DNA of 13,241 bases, taken from positions 1-13,241 of the forward strand of contig JAYSSO010000026.1 in NCBI GenBank assembly GCA_043720495.1, given 5' to 3'. Positions 862-13,241 of the stretch are shown one piece after another; position 1 is the first letter of the stretch; each line of letters begins with the position of its first letter. This stretch comes from Candidatus Lloydbacteria bacterium. GTDB taxonomy: Bacteria > Patescibacteriota > Minisyncoccia > Phycocordibacterales > UBA6899. A program made the position numbers and the translations under genes. The notes beneath the pieces are model-generated. The model was not told the DNA's origin and ran no database searches. It saw only the letters and a list, made by a program, of their open reading frames with translations.

Positions 862-890
862 TGAATGCGTAGTTGGAGGAGAATGGGTTT

Positions 891-1562
891 ATGCAACGTA
901 CGACTGCTTTTGCGCCGGGTGAATATTACCACCTCTACAACCGTGGGACTGAGAAGCGGATCATCTTTCTGGACGAAGAAGATCACAACCGATTTGTCTC
1001 GCTGCTCTATCTTTGCAACAGCGGAATTCCCATTCATCGCAGTGACTACCGCACGAACTCACTGCGAGGCCTCTTTCTCATCAACAGAGAGACAACGCTG
1101 GTCGATATTGGCGCATATTGCCTGATGCCAAACCATTTCCACATTCTCCTGCGCGAACACGCCGATGGCGGAGTAAGCATGTTTATGAAAAAACTGCTTA
1201 CTGCATATGCGATGTATTTCAATAAAAAATACGAGCGGACCGGCACGCTCTTTGAGGGGCCATTTCGCTCGCGACATGTAAGCAGGGACGAATACTTGAA
1301 GTATCTCTTCGCATACATCCACCTCAACCCTATCGGGATTATCGATGCAGGGTGGAAGAAAAAGCGCATTGGGAACAAGGCGGCTGCTAATCGATATCTC
1401 AATGAATACGAGTACTCCAGTTTTCTTGATTATGCAGGAGGGGTCGCTCCTCGGTGGCAGTCGGCGATACTGAATAAATTGGCTTTCCCTGAATATTTTG
1501 AGAAGCGAAATGACTTCGAAATCTATCTCAAAGACTGGATGACAGGGGTGGAGGAGGAATAG
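891..1562 (+). CDS. IS200-like / REP-associated tyrosine transposase (RAYT, HUH Y1 family)
   Basis: The HUH motif sits in YCLMPNHFHILL and the catalytic-Tyr helix motif in FAYIHLNPIG, giving the typical ~220-aa Y1_Tnp architecture. The ORF opens at a TTG at 873, but the first ATG at 891 is preferred (GGAGGA at 875-880). Confidence 0.85.
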   Translation: MQRTTAFAPGEYYHLYNRGTEKRIIFLDEEDHNRFVSLLYLCNSGIPIHRSDYRTNSLRGLFLINRETTLVDIGAYCLMPNHFHILLREHADGGVSMFMKKLLTAYAMYFNKKYERTGTLFEGPFRSRHVSRDEYLKYLFAYIHLNPIGIIDAGWKKKRIGNKAAANRYLNEYEYSSFLDYAGGVAPRWQSAILNKLAFPEYFEKRNDFEIYLKDWMTGVEEE

Positions 1563-8398: not shown

Positions 8399-8806
8399 TC
8401 ATTCGTCATCCAGAGAGTCGACAGGTGGATTCACAGAATCAAGGTAACTTTGGAGGACGATGGTGGCGGCGGATGCGTCATTCATTGCGTTGTCACCCTG
8501 AAGATGTGTGGCTTCCCGCGATGAGAGGGCTTCGTTCATAAAGATGATAGGGAGACCAGTTGCCACTTTCAACTCCTCCGCAAAAGGAGTGATCCTTTTC
8601 ATTAGTGGATTAGGTTGGTTTTGAAAATTGAGCGAATGTCCAATAACGATTGTGCCCACCTTTTCCACTCGACAGATGGCAGTAATGTCATCGACGAGTG
8701 TTGATGAGAATGGAATTACCCGCAACGGAAAGGCAAGCGTCCCACCGTCTGGTGAGGTCGCAAGGCCGACGCGTTTTGTGCCATAATCGATACCAAGATA
8801 TTTCAT
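8399..8806 (-). CDS. ruvX: Putative pre-16S rRNA nuclease / Holliday junction resolvase-like protein YqgF
   Basis: MKYLGIDYGTKRVGLA...IVIGHSLN...E.LSS..A is the YqgF/RuvX signature. The start is set at the ATG at 8806, because the 60-aa upstream extension in the ORF track is basic junk sequence. Confidence 0.88.
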   Translation of the reverse strand: MKYLGIDYGTKRVGLATSPDGGTLAFPLRVIPFSSTLVDDITAICRVEKVGTIVIGHSLNFQNQPNPLMKRITPFAEELKVATGLPIIFMNEALSSREATHLQGDNAMNDASAATIVLQSYLDSVNPPVDSLDDE

Positions 8807-8841
8807 ATGTGCAGTGTAACAGAGGTGACGTTTCCTTTTTC

Positions 8842-8870
8842 TTGACTTTATCGTTGCTACATGGTACTGT
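8842..8870 (+). promoter_or_regulatory. Candidate promoter TTGACT-17-(TGg)TACTGT
   Basis: TTGACT lies at 8842-8847, followed by a 17-nt spacer, and TACTGT at 8865-8870 is preceded by TGg. It precedes the AGGAG at 8885-8889. Confidence 0.45.
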
Positions 8871-8895
8871 TTTTTTAGACAAACAGGAGTTTCAT

Positions 8896-9849
8896 TTGAC
8901 AAACGACTACGGTTTTGGATTATTGCGTCTTGGCGTCTCCGTAGACGTTTTGGAGCACAACGACAAGCTCCTCGGGGCACTGACACTTGGCATCGAAGTC
9001 ACAAAGGAAGAGCTCGCAAGGCGCTGTGGCCTTGGCAACGTGGACCCGCAACACGTGCGGGGTGGAGGAAATTCGTCGGCTATTGAAGAGGCACTGTGCT
9101 ACCCCCTACCACCCGCAGGAGCGATGCTCGTGACAATTCGTCCCGACCAGGACTCGATTGGGGCGATGGCGATTTTCTACCTCCGAGCAATCGGAAAAGA
9201 GCAAACGATCGACAAGGCGCTGGTGGTGCGCATTGGCGCGGTAGACCGGCTTGGTCTCCGTGGTGCGCACGACGCCTATGCATCCACAGGTGGACTTCCC
9301 GGCACGCAACGTGAAGCTGATGCCATTCAAGTGATCGTCAGTAGCGATGACCCGACACTCACGCTCGAAGACAAGGTGGTGAGCATAAGCCAGATTATCG
9401 CCGGTGAGATGTCACTCCAAAAACTCCAAACAATCGCTGGCATGAAGGTGCGGAGTCAGCGTGAATTTATTGTGGTGATGGAGTTGGGAGTTCCCCTTAT
9501 CGAAACGCGTGGTGGCTACAAAGAAGCGCGCAGTATGATCAACAAGGACTACCCAGTGGGTGTGGTCATTGATTCTGCCTATGCTGGGCAAAACGGCGGG
9601 GAGTATCGCTTTACCGTGGTGCGTAAGCCGGGGTACTTTGATCGGTGGGGCTTTGATGCAGAAATCAATGCGGAAGAAGCCAAGGAGCGGGGAATATCTC
9701 GGGAGGAACTCGAGCGCCGGATGTGTGGCTGGGGAGGAAACAACAACATCGTGTCCTCTTCAGAAGGCTTCGGATGCGAGACGGTGCTCCCCAAGGAACG
9801 AATTCTTACTCTGGTGCGGAACCATTCACGGTCGGGAATCGTGTCCTGA
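8896..9849 (+). CDS. Hypothetical protein (317 aa) with a weak DHH-motif-I-like segment
   Basis: The start is inferred at the in-frame TTG at 8896, 6 nt after AGGAG; the longer ORF would overlap ruvX and no ATG is available. RPDQDSIGAMAI resembles DHH motif I, but the DHH triad position reads IDSAY. A strong terminator follows. Confidence 0.6.
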   Translation: MTNDYGFGLLRLGVSVDVLEHNDKLLGALTLGIEVTKEELARRCGLGNVDPQHVRGGGNSSAIEEALCYPLPPAGAMLVTIRPDQDSIGAMAIFYLRAIGKEQTIDKALVVRIGAVDRLGLRGAHDAYASTGGLPGTQREADAIQVIVSSDDPTLTLEDKVVSISQIIAGEMSLQKLQTIAGMKVRSQREFIVVMELGVPLIETRGGYKEARSMINKDYPVGVVIDSAYAGQNGGEYRFTVVRKPGYFDRWGFDAEINAEEAKERGISREELERRMCGWGGNNNIVSSSEGFGCETVLPKERILTLVRNHSRSGIVS

Positions 9850-9867
9850 ATTTTTGTTTTTTGTATG

Positions 9868-9893
9868 AGCGCCTCACGAGAGGCGCTTTTTTT
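9868..9893 (+). terminator. Intrinsic terminator
   Basis: The stem AGCGCCTC/GAGGCGCT (9868-9875 and 9880-9887) has the loop ACGA and is followed by T7. Confidence 0.85.
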
Positions 9894-9938
9894 ATGTACA
9901 AATTTTCAGATAGCTGCATCGCAGGCTTTTTTCAAAAA

Positions 9939-9947
9939 TGGTAAAAT
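9939..9947 (+). promoter_or_regulatory. Extended -10 element TGgTAAAAT, 8 nt before the ATG at 9956
   Basis: TG lies at 9939-9940 and TAAAAT at 9942-9947. There is no SD sequence, and the spacing implies a leaderless or near-leaderless mRNA. Confidence 0.4.
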
Positions 9948-9955
9948 AGCCTTAC

Positions 9956-10387
9956 ATGCAAAAAATAAAAGTAGAAACAATCGTGCCTGCTGACGTCAAA
10001 AAAGTCTGGCAACACTGGAATAATTCCGAGAGTATCAAGTGTTGGGCATTTGCGAGCGACACCTGGGAGTGCCCGTATGCAGAAAATGATTTACGAGTTG
10101 GTGGGAGGTTTTTAACAAGAATGTCTGCCAAAGATGGGAGCGCCTCTTTTGATTTTACGGGTACATATACTGAGGTTGTGGAGTTGAGTTCTATTACATA
10201 CCTAATGGACAAAGCGGACGGCGAACTGGAGCACCGAGAATGCGCGGTCGTATTTACCGACTTGGGAAACGGCACGACTCAGGTAACGGAGGAATTCACT
10301 CCTGAAGTTGAAAATAGTGAGGAACTGCAAAAAACTGGATGGTCGGCAATACTTGAAAACTTTAAAAAGTTCGTAGCAGATAATTAA
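9956..10387 (+). CDS. SRPBCC/AHSA1 (Aha1-like START-fold) domain protein
   Basis: The 143-aa ORF has the pattern I.A....VW..W...E....W.........D.R.GG.F.......DGS..F.F.G.Y.E......I.Y....R......F......T.V...F...........GW..IL.N.KK, typical of the AHSA1 family. Confidence 0.75.
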   Translation: MQKIKVETIVPADVKKVWQHWNNSESIKCWAFASDTWECPYAENDLRVGGRFLTRMSAKDGSASFDFTGTYTEVVELSSITYLMDKADGELEHRECAVVFTDLGNGTTQVTEEFTPEVENSEELQKTGWSAILENFKKFVADN

Positions 10388-10395
10388 TCAAAAAA

Positions 10396-10827
10396 ATGAA
10401 AAAAACCAAAACAGCTCAGTCCAAACTACCAACCGTTAGGGAATATAATAATTCACAAACAGTCGCCATGAAAAAAGTTTGTGAATTTTTGGCACTACAC
10501 ATAAACAAAAATTTAAAAAACAGCGAGTCGAAAATATGGCACCGTAGCCCGGTGTGGTTTATCGCCGGCAACCCAGTAGTGTCGTACACCGTGCGGAAAA
10601 GTATAGAAAAGGGTGCTAGAGTTTCACTTATGTTTTTCAGTGGCCAAAGCTTTGGGGAGGCAGACTTAATACCGGGAGGGAGCTTCAAGGCGGCGGAAAT
10701 ATTTTATACAGATACAAAGGAAATCAAAATTGCTTACCTCAAGCGGTGGCTACAGAAGGCAAAAAAAATACAGTGGGACTACAAGGATATTGTGAAAAGA
10801 AAGGGCGTGTTGAAAAAAATAGTGTAG
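10396..10827 (+). CDS. DUF1801 (YdhG-like) domain protein
   Basis: The 143-aa ORF has ...KIWHRSPVWFIAGNPVVSY... and the C-terminal LKRWLQKAKKIQWDYKDIV, characteristic of DUF1801 proteins. It starts 8 nt after the upstream stop and is very AT-rich. Confidence 0.65.
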   Translation: MKKTKTAQSKLPTVREYNNSQTVAMKKVCEFLALHINKNLKNSESKIWHRSPVWFIAGNPVVSYTVRKSIEKGARVSLMFFSGQSFGEADLIPGGSFKAAEIFYTDTKEIKIAYLKRWLQKAKKIQWDYKDIVKRKGVLKKIV

Positions 10828-10864
10828 CAAAGAGCTAACTCCGTTCACGCGCAAGCAAAGAGAA

Positions 10865-10880
10865 GGTGGGATTCGGACAC
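10865..10880 (-). repeat. Degenerate direct copy of the tRNA-Ser T-arm/3' region
   Basis: Plus-strand GAAGGTGGGATTCGGACAC matches tRNA-Ser GGAGGTGAGATTCGAACTC (11083-11101) at 15 of 19 aligned positions, in the same orientation. Confidence 0.5.
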
Positions 10881-10925
10881 GAGTTAGCATTTAAAAATCT
10901 TTATTCTTTTTACTACAATCACTGG

Positions 10926-10936
10926 GGTGAGATTCG
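10926..10936 (-). repeat. 11-nt exact direct copy of the tRNA-Ser 3' half (GGTGAGATTCG)
   Basis: It is identical to 11085-11095 inside tRNA-Ser and in the same orientation. It is immediately followed by the hairpin GCTGAT-TAC-ATCAGC. Confidence 0.55.
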
Positions 10937-10990
10937 CTGATTACATCAGCAGGTACTTTTCGGACTCCCTGAATCGTCATCGAAAAGTCT

Positions 10991-11039
10991 TTCGGAATCT
11001 CACACGAAAGTGCTGCCGAGCACTTTCTCTCCTCCGCCC
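10991..11039 (+). repeat. Inverted, interrupted copy of the tRNA-Ser 3' end
   Basis: TTCGGAATCTCAC (compare the tRNA's TTCGAATCTCAC) and CTCCTCCGCCC (acceptor 3' strand, discriminator and trailer) lie in opposite orientation to the tRNA. They are split by a 25-nt insert whose core is the hairpin GAAAGTGCT-GCCG-AGCACTTTC. Confidence 0.6.
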
Positions 11040-11040
11040 A

Positions 11041-11065
11041 ATAAAATAACCGCTTTGCAAGCGGT
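11041..11065 (-). terminator. Terminator-like hairpin downstream of tRNA-Ser
   Basis: The stem ACCGCTT/AAGCGGT (11049-11055 and 11059-11065) is followed on the minus strand by TATTTTATT. It forms the centre of a 57-nt near-palindrome at 11029-11085. Confidence 0.55.
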
Positions 11066-11077
11066 ATTTTATACGGG

Positions 11078-11164
11078 CGGAGGAGGTGAGATTCGAACTC
11101 ACGATACCGTTTCCGGTATGGCGCATTTCAAGTGCGCTGGAATAAACCACTATCCGACTCCTCC
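11078..11164 (-). tRNA. tRNA-Ser(UGA)
   Basis: The reverse complement reads GGAGGAG-TC-GGAT..TTCC-A-GCGCA-CT-TGA-AA-TGCGC-CATACCGGAAACGGTATC-GTGAG-TTCGAAT-CTCAC-CTCCTCC-G. This is an 87-nt class II tRNA with a 6-bp variable-arm stem and discriminator G. CCA is not encoded. Confidence 0.92.
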
Positions 11165-11647
11165 GTATTTTATAGTTTTTCTCAACCAACTTTTTTCTAA
11201 AAAATGCTCTTCGTAATGACAATTCGGGCAGATAAGCTCAAGGTTCTCTATCTGATTATCATCATGATTTCGATTTTTATGATGCACGTGCAATATCTCA
11301 TATTTACCATACGCACATCGCTCACACTTTTTTCCTCGAATATCGAGGAGGCGCATTTTGAGCGCACGCGCAGATACCACCTTATCCCTTGGTCTATTTA
11401 TTTTATATTGAATACCTGCCCGATGCTTGTTTGCACAACTTCTACTGCACGTCTTTTTATGGAGTCCAGCTAAAATTAGCTTTTGACAAACAACGCACGG
11501 TACTTCTTTTCTACAAGCAATACCATAACACCGCTGTCCGCAGTAAGCACGTCCACCGCTCAACTCCTGCTCACCAGGTCGGCGGTATACTGGGGTTTCA
11601 CAAACAGCACACTTTGTATTGGGATTTCTTTTATGTAACTCAGTCAC
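11150..11647 (-). CDS. HNH endonuclease with N-terminal zinc-ribbon repeats
   Basis: The HNH core is CERCAYGKYEILHVHHKNRNHDDNQIENLELICPNCHYEEH. Two N-terminal CxxC...CxxxC modules are present (CAVCETP...YCGQRC and CVVCQKL...TCSRSC). The start is a GTG at 11647, and the last 5 codons plus the stop lie inside tRNA-Ser. Confidence 0.8.
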   Translation of the reverse strand: MTELHKRNPNTKCAVCETPVYRRPGEQELSGGRAYCGQRCYGIACRKEVPCVVCQKLILAGLHKKTCSRSCANKHRAGIQYKINRPRDKVVSARALKMRLLDIRGKKCERCAYGKYEILHVHHKNRNHDDNQIENLELICPNCHYEEHFLEKSWLRKTIKYGGVG

Positions 11648-11765
11648 TCATCCACTCTACCACATGGAGTAAGCTTACGCATCACTATACTGAATTATGA
11701 AAAAAAGACAAAAAACGCTTTTGTGTGGCCATGCTGTGGGAGACTGAGTTGCCCATGAAAAATTC

Positions 11766-11794
11766 TTGACATTATGTTTAATCTGTGATAAACT
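11766..11794 (+). promoter_or_regulatory. Promoter TTGACA-17-(TGa)TAAACT for the high-GC gene
   Basis: The consensus -35 lies at 11766-11771, followed by a 17-nt spacer and an extended -10 (TG at 11786-11787, TAAACT at 11789-11794). Confidence 0.55.
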
Positions 11795-11819
11795 TATATC
11801 AGCGTGATCCTTGAATTTG

Positions 11820-11874
11820 TTGTGATCACCTCAGTGTTTGTAAGGGAAATCCACAAATAGTGAGGTGATCACAA
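11820..11874. repeat. 14-bp perfect inverted repeat (long hairpin) carrying two GTGATCAC palindromes
   Basis: TTGTGATCACCTCA (11820-11833) and TGAGGTGATCACAA (11861-11874) form the outer stem. An inner 5-bp helix TTTGT/ACAAA (11837-11841 and 11853-11857) closes an 11-nt apical loop. The structure lies in the 5' leader of the CDS at 11910. Confidence 0.85.
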
Positions 11875-11909
11875 TCGTGACACTACAACCCCTCCTAGGA
11901 GACGCATCC

Positions 11910-12659
11910 ATGAACACCGCCACCCTGACCCGCCCGCAAAACAACGTCAACCAGAACCAGGGCTTCGCGCCCTCGCCGTTCGTCATCGACATGAAGGGCC
12001 GCATGGCCCGCGCAGGCGAATCGTTCGGCTGCTGGCAGTTCGTCGTGGACGCGCTCACGGAGAAGAAGTTCTCCCCGGCCGATTTGGTCAAGGACTTCGT
12101 CCGCGACTGCCCCTTGCCGGATGTGAAGCAGAGCCTCCTCGGTCGCCAGCGCGAGTTCATCCTCGCACTCGCGCCCAAGGAACTCCCCCAGAACGAAGGA
12201 CGCTTGGGCACGTTCGTGACGACCTCGTCGCTCTGCTCGGCGAAGGATTTCCTGAAGGCGGCGAATTTGCTGAAGGAGATCTACGACACCATCAAGGTAC
12301 CGATGCCGAAGGAGCTGATGGGTCGTATCAGTGCATGCAATCGGGTGCATGTCTCCGAAGAAGGCGGTGGCTACAACCACGCGGACCTGGTCGGCGCCGG
12401 CTACGAGAAGCGTGTCGTCAACAATCGGGAGGCGTACATTCACCTGGTGAGCGGTGACGTGATCATCCTGCCGGGTGCCAAGAAGCTGACGGGTGGCGCC
12501 TTGCTCTCGCCCGAGGAGATCGCCAAGCGGCAAGCCATCAACGCCGAACTGCGTGCCAAGGGCAAGGCGGCCCGCGTGAAGGTCGTCGTGAAGACCCCCA
12601 AGGTCGACAAGAAGGCGAAGAGGGCCGAAGCCGAAGCGGCGAAGAACAAGCGCAAGTAA
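11910..12659 (+). CDS. Orphan hypothetical protein (249 aa) with extreme GC3 and a Lys/Ala-rich basic C-terminal tail
   Basis: The ATG lies 8 nt after TAGGAG (11896-11901). Of the first 30 codons, 29 end in G/C. The C-terminus reads AKGKAARVKVVVKTPKVDKKAKRAEAEAAKNKRK. No family is recognised. The ORF-track start at 11865 lies inside the leader hairpin. Confidence 0.75.
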   Translation: MNTATLTRPQNNVNQNQGFAPSPFVIDMKGRMARAGESFGCWQFVVDALTEKKFSPADLVKDFVRDCPLPDVKQSLLGRQREFILALAPKELPQNEGRLGTFVTTSSLCSAKDFLKAANLLKEIYDTIKVPMPKELMGRISACNRVHVSEEGGGYNHADLVGAGYEKRVVNNREAYIHLVSGDVIILPGAKKLTGGALLSPEEIAKRQAINAELRAKGKAARVKVVVKTPKVDKKAKRAEAEAAKNKRK

Positions 12660-12684
12660 GTTGCAAGAGTCGACAAGTTCGACA

Positions 12685-12709
12685 AGGGTCCCACACGGGG
12701 CCCTTTTTT
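12685..12709 (+). terminator. Intrinsic terminator
   Basis: The stem AGGGTCCC/GGGGCCCT (12685-12692 and 12697-12704, one G-U pair) has the loop ACAC and is followed by a T-run. Confidence 0.8.
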
Positions 12710-12751
12710 ATTTATCAAAGTGCCCATCCCTCCAACATGATGACGTTGTGG

Positions 12752-12791: not shown

Positions 12792-13241
12792 ATGGAATGG
12801 AGCATCCTTGAGCACGAATATACGGAAAAAACCAACGACTGGTATGCGTCGGTCATTTTGATTGCTGGAGCGCTTATTGCTGTGGAATTTCTGACCAACA
12901 ATTTTCTCCTTATTACGCTGACGTTTATAGGAACGGCGACATTCATTTTGCTCTCTGCACGGAAGCCAGAAATGATGCATGTAGAAATTCTCAAAAAAGG
13001 TATTCATGCCGGCAACGTGATGTATGCGTATCACTCGCTCGATGCCTTCGCAATTGTCGAATACCACCATGAAAATAGACTTCTCCTTGAGTCCAACAGA
13101 CACCTCATGCCACTCATTGTGATTCCCATTCCTCATGACGTCGACCCGGATGATATACGGGAAGTATTGACTGAGTATTTGGATGAGAAGGAGTTGCATG
13201 AGTCGTTTGCACATCTGCTACTCGAGCGTCTCGGCTTCTAG
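12792..13241 (+). CDS. Hypothetical membrane protein (2 predicted TM helices)
   Basis: The 149-aa ORF runs from the ATG at 12792 (the ORF opens at a GTG at 12771). Hydrophobic segments are WYASVILIAGALIAVEFL and FLLITLTFIGTATFILL. The TAG stop falls exactly at the window end. Confidence 0.65.
   Translation: MEWSILEHEYTEKTNDWYASVILIAGALIAVEFLTNNFLLITLTFIGTATFILLSARKPEMMHVEILKKGIHAGNVMYAYHSLDAFAIVEYHHENRLLLESNRHLMPLIVIPIPHDVDPDDIREVLTEYLDEKELHESFAHLLLERLGF

Follow-up and report, generated by a model that had tools for sequence, protein, structure and literature searches.

A modular basic-protein gene with an excess of G/C-ending codons at a conserved position in Candidatus Lloydbacteria

Expression signals and composition of the unit

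The window analysed here is the 13,241-nucleotide (nt) stretch at positions 1 to 13,241 of contig JAYSSO010000026.1 (assembly GCA_043720495.1, Candidatus Lloydbacteria bacterium), and the subject of this report is a single unit within it, at 11766-12715, made up of a promoter, a structured leader, one gene for a protein of 249 amino acids (aa) and a terminator. An earlier sequence-only reading had described this unit as a compositionally alien orphan cassette, recently acquired from a high-GC donor or a mobile element. The family gene that occupies this slot is termed X throughout, A-type X being the kind found in the window and B-type X a kind with a different N-terminal body. The features of the unit are as follows.

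11766-11794, plus strand: promoter TGTGATAAACT, with TTGACA, a 17-nt spacer and a TG-extended -10 element TAAACT (10 of 12 consensus matches)
11820-11874, plus strand: conserved hairpin of the 5' untranslated region (UTR), arms 11820-11841 and 11853-11874, a 22-nt inverted repeat with 91% complementarity
11897-11901, plus strand: ribosome-binding site (RBS) AGGAG, 8 nt 5' of the ATG, read from the sequence
11910-12659, plus strand: coding sequence (CDS) of the 249-aa A-type X protein, with a G+C content at third codon positions (GC3) of 0.86
11970-12359, plus strand: lineage-variable N-terminal helical domain (residues ~21-150), modelled by AlphaFold2 as seven helices with a predicted local distance difference test score (pLDDT) >90
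12381-12656, plus strand: conserved C-terminal module (residues ~158-249), with an AGY motif, a beta-hairpin, 'LSPEE', a basic helix and a Lys-rich tail
12684-12715, plus strand: intrinsic terminator, with a 9-bp, G+C-rich stem (12684-12705), a 4-nt loop, then a T-run

Several homologous loci were available for comparison. L003, an independent contig from Logan, matches the window exactly across the two cassette boundaries, and L002 is a contig from a second sample that spans the upstream tRNA gene, the cassette and the gene for a protein with two transmembrane segments (2-TM) that follows it. L004 and a contig identical to the window come from one common sample, L249-L251 represent the closest long-contig relative, with a 2-TM protein 87% identical to that of the window, and L252 is Candidatus Lloydbacteria MHLM01.

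The unit had been proposed to carry its own promoter, a structured leader of about 110 nt, an RBS and a terminator, and each of these was located and found to be conserved among the homologous loci. The TTGACA...TGnTAnnnT arrangement also lies upstream of X in L002, L004, L001, L246, L247, L249 and L252; contig L248 begins within the promoter, and the TG-extended -10 is the only part visible there. The leader is ~108 nt long with the hairpin at the start of the 5' UTR, and the segment 11800-11925 folds with -42.2 kcal/mol (z = -5.1), a value equalled by no shuffle. The hairpin is kept in five loci, 6 of its 22 pairs being preserved through changes on both sides, and in L002 it includes G.U pairs that are possible only in the plus-strand transcript. 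An Rfam scan returned no gathering-threshold match besides the tRNAs, with chance-level matches only over 11650-12000 (E of at least 0.17). A scan of genome and metagenome contigs with the 16-nt leader motif TGAGGTGATCACAATC was discarded, the pattern being too short; the new matches were due to chance, none of them accompanied by the 5' arm of the hairpin. The motif (A)GGAG occurs at a similar short distance from the ATG in all homologous loci, and this conserved spacing favours the start at 11910 over an alternative GTG at 11865, which was rejected as it lies within the leader hairpin and the homologues align from the ATG with its conserved RBS. An equivalent terminator is found 3' of the X gene in every homologous locus. 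Together, these observations support a self-contained, monocistronic unit.

Comparison of the window with L002 revealed a run of 102 identical nt at 11861-11962, which reaches from the 3' arm of the hairpin across the RBS to codon 17; elsewhere in the gene ~16% of sites differ. The N-terminus encoded within this run is disordered and is not conserved across the wider family. Such identity suggests that the tract was converted recently or that the region of translation initiation is constrained at the RNA level.

The CDS has a G+C content of 0.623, resolved into 0.60 at first (GC1), 0.40-0.41 at second (GC2) and 0.86-0.87 at third codon positions. The 18 other open reading frames (ORFs) of the window, which served as the background for composition, have GC3 values of 0.34-0.58 (mean 0.474, standard deviation (sd) 0.055), and the CDS thus stands at about +7 sd, while its GC1 and GC2 lie within 1 sd of the background (0.56 +/- 0.06 and 0.38 +/- 0.05); GC3 alone deviates. 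Amino-acid usage of the protein is likewise host-like, with Lys (10.4%) exceeding Arg (6.4%). Recounting at the start of the CDS agreed with 29 G/C-ending codons among the first 30; the accompanying figure of a GC3 of about 95% was accurate for these 30 codons only, as opposed to 86-87% for the whole gene. The abrupt compositional shift described at both edges was seen in profiles at two scales: in 300-nt windows the G+C content changes from 0.41-0.47 to 0.59-0.63 at the cassette and back to 0.44 after it, and in 40-nt windows it rises from ~11860-11900 and falls at ~12640-12700. The non-coding flanks that adjoin the CDS are not raised in G+C in the window. The same cassette junctions recur in the independent contigs L003 and L002, which excludes the assembly chimerism that had been named as a possible source of the pattern.

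An antisense ORF of 212 aa at 11895-12533 (minus strand) was considered and rejected as a gene, being an expected by-product of high GC3 whose L249 equivalent was miscalled. The opening of long antisense ORFs by high GC3 is seen again in L249, in which 8819-9856 (minus strand) lies opposite 8963-9892 (plus strand); in L249 a gene caller chose the antisense 345-aa ORF over the real 309-aa gene, whereas the call was right for L250, whose sequence is the same. The exact 249-aa product is represented in the protein collection by Logan alone, and the neighbouring proteins by NCBI entries; it is therefore probable that the 249-aa gene was called differently, or not at all, in the NCBI record.

A clade-restricted protein family in a modular slot

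A word-indexed protein search identified three relatives of the 249-aa protein and one tail-only match, and an exhaustive HMMER search with their alignment went further, yielding 19 cluster representatives of the family. A word-based search with the 17-sequence profile returned 3 proteins, as low-complexity tail words swamped the candidates. The representatives are 241-311 aa long and of one architecture, save for two truncated calls, one 190-aa member and P0008, a repetitive adhesin-like protein of 4480 aa with 23 weak stretches that was rejected as spurious. In an alignment of 17 A-type members (A3), W42, Y165 and H178 are invariant, C67-P68, A163-G164, R139 and others nearly so, and a Lys-rich tail terminates all members. 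An AlphaFold2 model built with this alignment (pLDDT 81 overall, >90 at residues 21-150) places a three-stranded sheet at residues 165-186 and a long basic helix at 201-224, in addition to seven helices, and ends in a Lys-rich stretch of low confidence; pLDDT is ~50-56 beyond residue 220 and below 50 only at residues 226-233. The whole protein has an isoelectric point (pI) of 9.7, and residues 201-249 form a tail of 49 residues with a net charge of +11, a pI of 10.6 and a combined lysine and arginine fraction of 0.35, so that the Lys-rich tail pointed out earlier is real. No signal peptide and no transmembrane segment are visible in the protein sequence.

Searches of Pfam and NCBIfam gave no match at E <= 1 for the 249-aa protein or for the 17 family members, and PHROGs and PADLOC gave none for the 249-aa protein. 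A profile search of the PDB gave composition-level matches only, to Lys-rich ribosomal proteins (E of at least 0.017), Foldseek against the PDB and BFVD gave no fold match with E < 0.1, and phage, plasmid and IMG/VR searches gave no relative. Nothing relevant was found in the literature on Lloydbacteria or on lysine-rich Patescibacteria proteins. The term 'orphan' is therefore apt as regards curated families (Pfam, NCBIfam, PHROGs, PADLOC) and the structures of the PDB and BFVD, but not as regards homologues, of which HMMER found 19 representatives. A Cys-His(-Asp) enzyme was suggested by the near-invariance of C67, H178 and D183 in A-type proteins, and was set aside: the B-type module has no equivalent His or Cys and one A-type protein has Met in place of Cys. 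X is an undescribed, clade-restricted, modular family of basic proteins.

The modularity of the family was apparent from the bodies found at this position. The slot of L249-L251 holds a 309-aa B-type protein with a different body, whose GC3 is 0.84 in a locus of 45.5% G+C, L004 and L005 hold a 345-aa relative of this L249 protein (P0004) with a GC3 of 0.77, and L252 holds a 167-aa version of X with little beyond the C-terminal module. Alignment of the B-type (A5) against the A-type (A3) alignment by hhalign gave a probability of 96.4% and an E of 1e-9 over 88 columns, which correspond to the C-terminal module only. This common module of ~90 residues consists of an aromatic-Gly-Tyr/Phe motif, a beta-hairpin, 'LSPEE', the basic helix and the Lys-rich tail. 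At the nucleotide level, blastn of the window against L004 aligned the tRNA gene, a box upstream of the promoter, the promoter and hairpin, the tail and the terminator, the bodies being unrelated. The tail 'VVKTPKxDKKAK' was found on A-type (window) and B-type (P0004) proteins, as was the tail 'AQPSKGxGG...GGKK' (A-type P0013 and P0017; B-type L249 and L252); judged from these sequences, tail subtypes are shuffled relative to body types. X is polymorphic among close relatives and even within one sample, SRR23617227.

The position of X was then set by two neighbours.

12792-13241, plus strand: gene for the 149-aa 2-TM protein, with its own promoter; the constant downstream neighbour of X
11075-11165, minus strand: tRNA-Ser(TGA), the upstream landmark of the slot, identified by ARAGORN and Rfam

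A-type X lies directly 5' of the 2-TM gene in the window, L002, L001, L246, L247 and L248, these homologues having 22-88% identity to the window protein (88% for the L002 copy), and B-type X lies directly 5' of it in L249-L251 and L252-L254, with a B-type gene at the same slot in L004. At least 8 distinct relatives therefore have X next to the 2-TM gene. For the 2-TM protein (MEWxxLEHxYxEKTNDWYASVILIAG...) 115 clusters were obtained, under the source names Candidatus Lloydbacteria, Candidatus Paceibacterota and Patescibacteria. The tRNA-Ser(TGA) also precedes X in L002, L004, L249 and L252, and the pair formed by X and the 2-TM gene was found in other contexts too, preceded by phosphoribosyl pyrophosphate (PRPP) synthase in L001 and L246 and by an HTH_38 gene in L247. 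The gene order common to the window and the Lloydbacteria contigs begins with L19, a Y1-transposase-like gene, RluD, UppS, AcyP and two tRNAs, continues with PilO/N/M, a tRNA-binding protein, RuvX, a variable stretch, tRNA-Ser(TGA), X and the 2-TM gene, and ends with a response regulator, S20 and RuvA. This shared order indicates that the 'cassette' is a part of the conserved backbone. X, of A- or B-type, was thus present at the locus in relatives, which is among the findings that the earlier reading had named as refuting a recent acquisition, though the family is not a well-characterised one. No direct repeats bracketing 11766-12715 were found, and no integrase was recognised among the window ORFs, six of which were analysed with Pfam and the others named via synteny with annotated relatives.

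Maintenance of the third-position excess and possible functions of X

A-type X has the highest GC3 among the called genes of each homologous locus, with values of 0.59 in L001 and L246, 0.73 in L247, 0.76 in L248, 0.86 in the window and 0.90 in L002, and with neighbours at 0.34-0.55. The 309-aa X of L249 is an extreme outlier (0.84 vs 0.33-0.56), and the 167-aa X of L252, at 0.63, is near the top of its locus, where one small ORF is higher at 0.66. Between the X genes of the window and L002, third positions differ at 63 of 232 (27%), 36 of these 63 differences being G<->C swaps, and the differing codons comprise 50 synonymous and 28 non-synonymous ones, with GC3 at 0.86 and 0.90. Such synonymous turnover, with GC3 held in both genes, shows that the bias is actively maintained, the opposite of amelioration.

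Codon usage was analysed in a pool of the four most GC3-rich X genes at this position (1119 codons). Lys is encoded by AAG in 94% of cases, Glu by GAG in 56% (P = 1e-9 under uniform GC3) and Gln by CAG in 58%. Gly is distributed over GGC (64%), GGT (26%) and GGG (6%), Arg over CGC (57%) and CGT (22%), and AGA, ATA, CTA and TTA were not used at all. The preferences that are independent of G+C (CGY, GGY, no ATA) are common to X and two ribosomal protein genes, L19 and S20, which were compared in three genomes, and this sharing may point to selection for optimal codons.

The best explanation, in which we place moderate confidence, is that X occupies a native, vertically inherited slot of a Candidatus Lloydbacteria-like genome and encodes a modular, probably highly expressed basic protein, perhaps nucleic-acid-binding, whose GC3 is held by selection. 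It builds on the anatomy, conservation, synteny and modularity of the unit and on the pattern and persistence of its codon bias, all of which were observed directly. High expression is probable from the conserved promoter, 5' hairpin, RBS and terminator. An abundant basic protein would bind a polyanion, most likely DNA or RNA, via the basic helix and tail, and the variable N-domain would supply oligomerisation or partner specificity. GC3 would most likely be maintained because selection acts on the codons or the mRNA of a gene expressed at a very high level; the X mRNA would be stabilised by the 5' hairpin, and the use of AAG for the many lysines would keep the message free of the slippery A-runs that AAA creates.

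Several findings weigh against this explanation. L19 (GC3 0.48) and S20 (0.51-0.54) have no GC3 shift, the overall range being 0.48-0.61, so that ordinary translational selection can be no more than part of the cause. Within four-codon families, G-ending codons replace A-ending ones, a change that tRNAs with U34 would not favour and that looks GC-driven, and tRNA-Lys(UUU) is the sole tRNA-Lys seen in the loci, so that AAG is not obviously favoured. X is also absent from the slot in the more distant L255 and L256, in which the 2-TM gene is present, and such an absence, together with the swapping of N-domains between close relatives, is not normally seen for a core nucleoid protein.

Two candidate causes of the GC3 excess are live, namely mRNA-level selection in an exceptionally expressed gene and GC-biased gene conversion. 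The second would have a native gene at a recombination hot spot, where alleles and N-domains are exchanged between conserved flanks, the leader hairpin on the 5' side and the tail and terminator on the 3' side, with weak-to-strong substitutions at unconstrained sites as the outcome; we consider it unlikely, though a serious contender. A- and B-type bodies do occur in one slot of close relatives (the 2-TM proteins being 87% identical), both with GC3 of 0.77-0.90, tail types are shuffled against body types, and the slot clearly recombines: the window and L002 form a mosaic in which 102 nt around the ATG are identical (P = 2e-8 at a uniform rate) and identity then runs through 97%, 73% and ~90% toward the tail. 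The unshifted ribosomal protein genes and the A-ending to G-ending shift also speak for conversion. However, a uniform drive predicts that Lys, Glu and Gln behave alike, and AAG reaches 94% against 56% for GAG and 58% for CAG; GGG stays at 6% while GGT stands at 26% and CGT at 22%; and in the window neither GC1 and GC2 nor the G+C content of the adjoining non-coding flanks is elevated. Because of this codon specificity, selection is favoured over conversion, which may nevertheless contribute.

A stronger form of the selective explanation, which strikes us as fairly improbable, would make X a clade-specific, extremely abundant coat of nucleic acid, its N-domains swapped among strains by recombination between hairpin and tail and its GC3 held by selection at the level of the nucleic acid itself. 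Such selection might shield the gene's own DNA or mRNA from an AT/AU-preferring product, or the mRNA from AU-directed RNases. If this were true, X would be a single-gene compositional island made by selection in the otherwise unbiased genome of a slow-growing member of the candidate phyla radiation (CPR).

That X is a secreted or host-delivered effector, with the variable N-domain as payload and the charged, disordered C-terminus as export signal, is improbable. The joining of a variable N-domain to a conserved C-terminal module and the polymorphism of X among close relatives and inside sample SRR23617227 would suit an effector, as would the probable episymbiotic life of these organisms, the type IV pilus genes of the window (PilM) and a protein with a type IV secretion system (T4SS) pilin domain nearby in L255. 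In contrast, no type-specific immunity gene accompanies X, the 2-TM protein being the same whatever the body type, library searches gave no homology to known secretion signals or effector domains, L255, the very locus with the T4SS-pilin gene, is without X, and a strong constitutive promoter with codon optimisation is unusual for effectors.

It is very improbable that X is a membrane-associated scaffold whose polybasic tail lies on acidic phospholipids and acts with the adjacent 2-TM protein. The adjacency of X and the 2-TM gene does survive changes of context (PRPP synthase in L001 and L246, HTH_38 in L247), but each of the two genes has its own promoter and a terminator separates them, the 2-TM gene is present without X in L255 and L256, and X has no amphipathic membrane-targeting motif.

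Recent acquisition as a cassette from a high-GC donor or mobile element, beside a tRNA-Ser and an HNH endonuclease gene, is scarcely tenable: the G+C content of 0.62 vs ~0.46, the sharp edges, the nearby tRNA and HNH genes and the lack of an annotated family would fit it, but GC1, GC2 and amino-acid usage (Lys 10.4% vs Arg 6.4%) are host-like and synonymous sites alone are shifted, the same position is kept in at least 8 distinct relatives, GC3 shows no decay but is maintained at a third-position divergence of 27%, loci with different bodies have homologous AT-rich promoters and leaders, the family representatives share one architecture and none of them gives evidence of a high-GC host. Flanking direct repeats, an integrase among the window ORFs (six analysed with Pfam, the others named via synteny) and phage, plasmid or IMG/VR relatives were likewise not found. 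By every criterion tested, the unit at 11766-12715 does not behave as a horizontally acquired island.

Neighbouring features and comparison with known systems

Between the tRNA-Ser gene and the unit, the window contains one further gene.

11150-11647, minus strand: HNH endonuclease ORF of 165 aa, with the lowest GC3 of the window (0.34)

This gene lies in an insertion of ~480 nt between the tRNA-Ser and a conserved 'CATCCACTC...CACTATACTGAA' box. In L002, L004, L249 and L252 the tRNA gene leads directly to the X promoter without an HNH gene, and its absence there indicates that HNH is a real recent insertion here; it looks like a free-standing homing endonuclease. The HNH stop overlaps the 5' end of the tRNA-Ser gene by ~15 nt. 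The window tRNA-Ser(TGA) is 74-79% identical to the copies of L004, L249 and L252, these copies and the partial L002 copy being near-identical by eye, though unscored. It differs from them by paired changes located in the D, anticodon and variable arms, the acceptor and T arms being identical, and it could be a foreign replacement, perhaps tied to the adjacent HNH gene, or a case of unusually fast divergence. At 11029-11085 a 27-nt inverted repeat with 78% complementarity includes the 3' acceptor end of the tRNA-Ser together with its inverted copy, the two enclosing a terminator-like hairpin. The tRNA-Ser of L255 and L256 is followed by a comparable structure, and the repeats that had been likened to integration scars appear native. 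In the same two contigs, at 9740-9900, where X is missing, the tRNA-Ser (plus strand) is followed by a degenerate tRNA-like fragment (GGGCGGAGGAAGC...GGTTTCGAATCTCACCGGGC) and then by the 2-TM gene, and the fragment may be a remnant of a rearrangement or deletion of the slot.

The stretch from RuvX to tRNA-Ser is variable. In the window (8698-10827) it holds orf383, an AHSA1-like gene and a DUF1801-like gene, orf383 having the second-highest GC3 of the window (0.58) and a local G+C peak of 0.60 at 9001-9300. The corresponding stretch holds a 356-aa ORF, an aminotransferase and a DsbA-like gene in L249 (5066-8107), nothing in L252 and a 400-aa ORF in L255 (8363-9565). A tRNA-Arg(GCG) 3' of the 2-TM gene appears to be an insertion point for islands: L249 carries at 10518-19376 helix-turn-helix (HTH) genes, a HATPase protein, an M78 peptidase and a Multi_ubiq/ThiF/BubE cluster (ubiquitin-like, defence-type), and L256 carries at 10651-12245 a serine recombinase, followed by many small ORFs. 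The window also has an IS200-like Y1 transposase ORF at 873-1562 (plus strand), between L19 and RluD, named from the PF01797 match of its L252/L253 counterpart; its presence at the same place in L252 and L253 suggests a fixed or domesticated copy and not an active insertion.

Bacterial nucleoid proteins with a histone-H1-like Lys/Ala-rich tail include Hc1/Hc2 of Chlamydia, HupB/MDP1 of mycobacteria, and AlgP and PhaF of Pseudomonas. X resembles these in its basic character (pI 9.7), its disordered, Lys/Ala-rich C-terminal tail and its expression signals of an abundant-protein type. It differs from them in giving no match at E <= 1 and no fold match, in a tail without regular KPAA/AKKA repeats, in a predicted fold that is an unrelated seven-helix bundle with a small sheet, and in an N-domain that is exchangeable between close relatives. 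The likeness, as far as sequence comparison goes, is one of composition only.

A second comparison is with substrates of T4SSs, which carry Arg-rich C-terminal signals in VirB/D4 systems, with the X-Tfe effectors of Xanthomonas, which join a variable N-terminus to a conserved C-terminal XVIPCD, and with the Bep effectors of Bartonella, T4SS effectors with a positively charged tail. Like X-Tfe/XVIPCD proteins and Beps, X joins an N-terminal body that can be exchanged to a C-terminal module that is conserved and positively charged; it has, however, no homology to them, no cognate immunity gene and no linked secretion genes.

The genes ompA and lpp of E. coli are highly expressed and monocistronic, combining codon bias with a strong promoter and a stem-loop at the 5' end that stabilises the transcript. 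X is like them in its promoter, which is close to consensus, in the long hairpin with which its UTR starts, in a strong RBS and an intrinsic terminator, and in avoiding the rare codons AGA, AGG, CGA, ATA, CTA and GGG. In contrast to ompA and lpp, X is also shifted generally to G/C-ending codons, while the ribosomal protein genes of the same genomes are unshifted. X flags a probably abundant, undescribed protein family in Lloydbacteria, a CPR group without cultured members, for which it is useful to know the most abundant cellular proteins, and the conserved flanks around an exchangeable body suggest a natural site of allele replacement.

Finally, X shares with tRNA-linked islands an atypical G+C content, sharp edges and the proximity of a tRNA gene and an HNH endonuclease gene. 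Unlike such islands, it is atypical at the third position only, it is syntenic, it has no att-like repeats or integrase and its bias is not ameliorating. On the explanation favoured here, a native gene can hold a seven-sigma GC3 excess over the long term while its neighbours, including ribosomal protein genes, do not. X would then be a counter-example to the rule that atypical G+C beside a tRNA gene means horizontal transfer, and one that island-prediction tools would misclassify.

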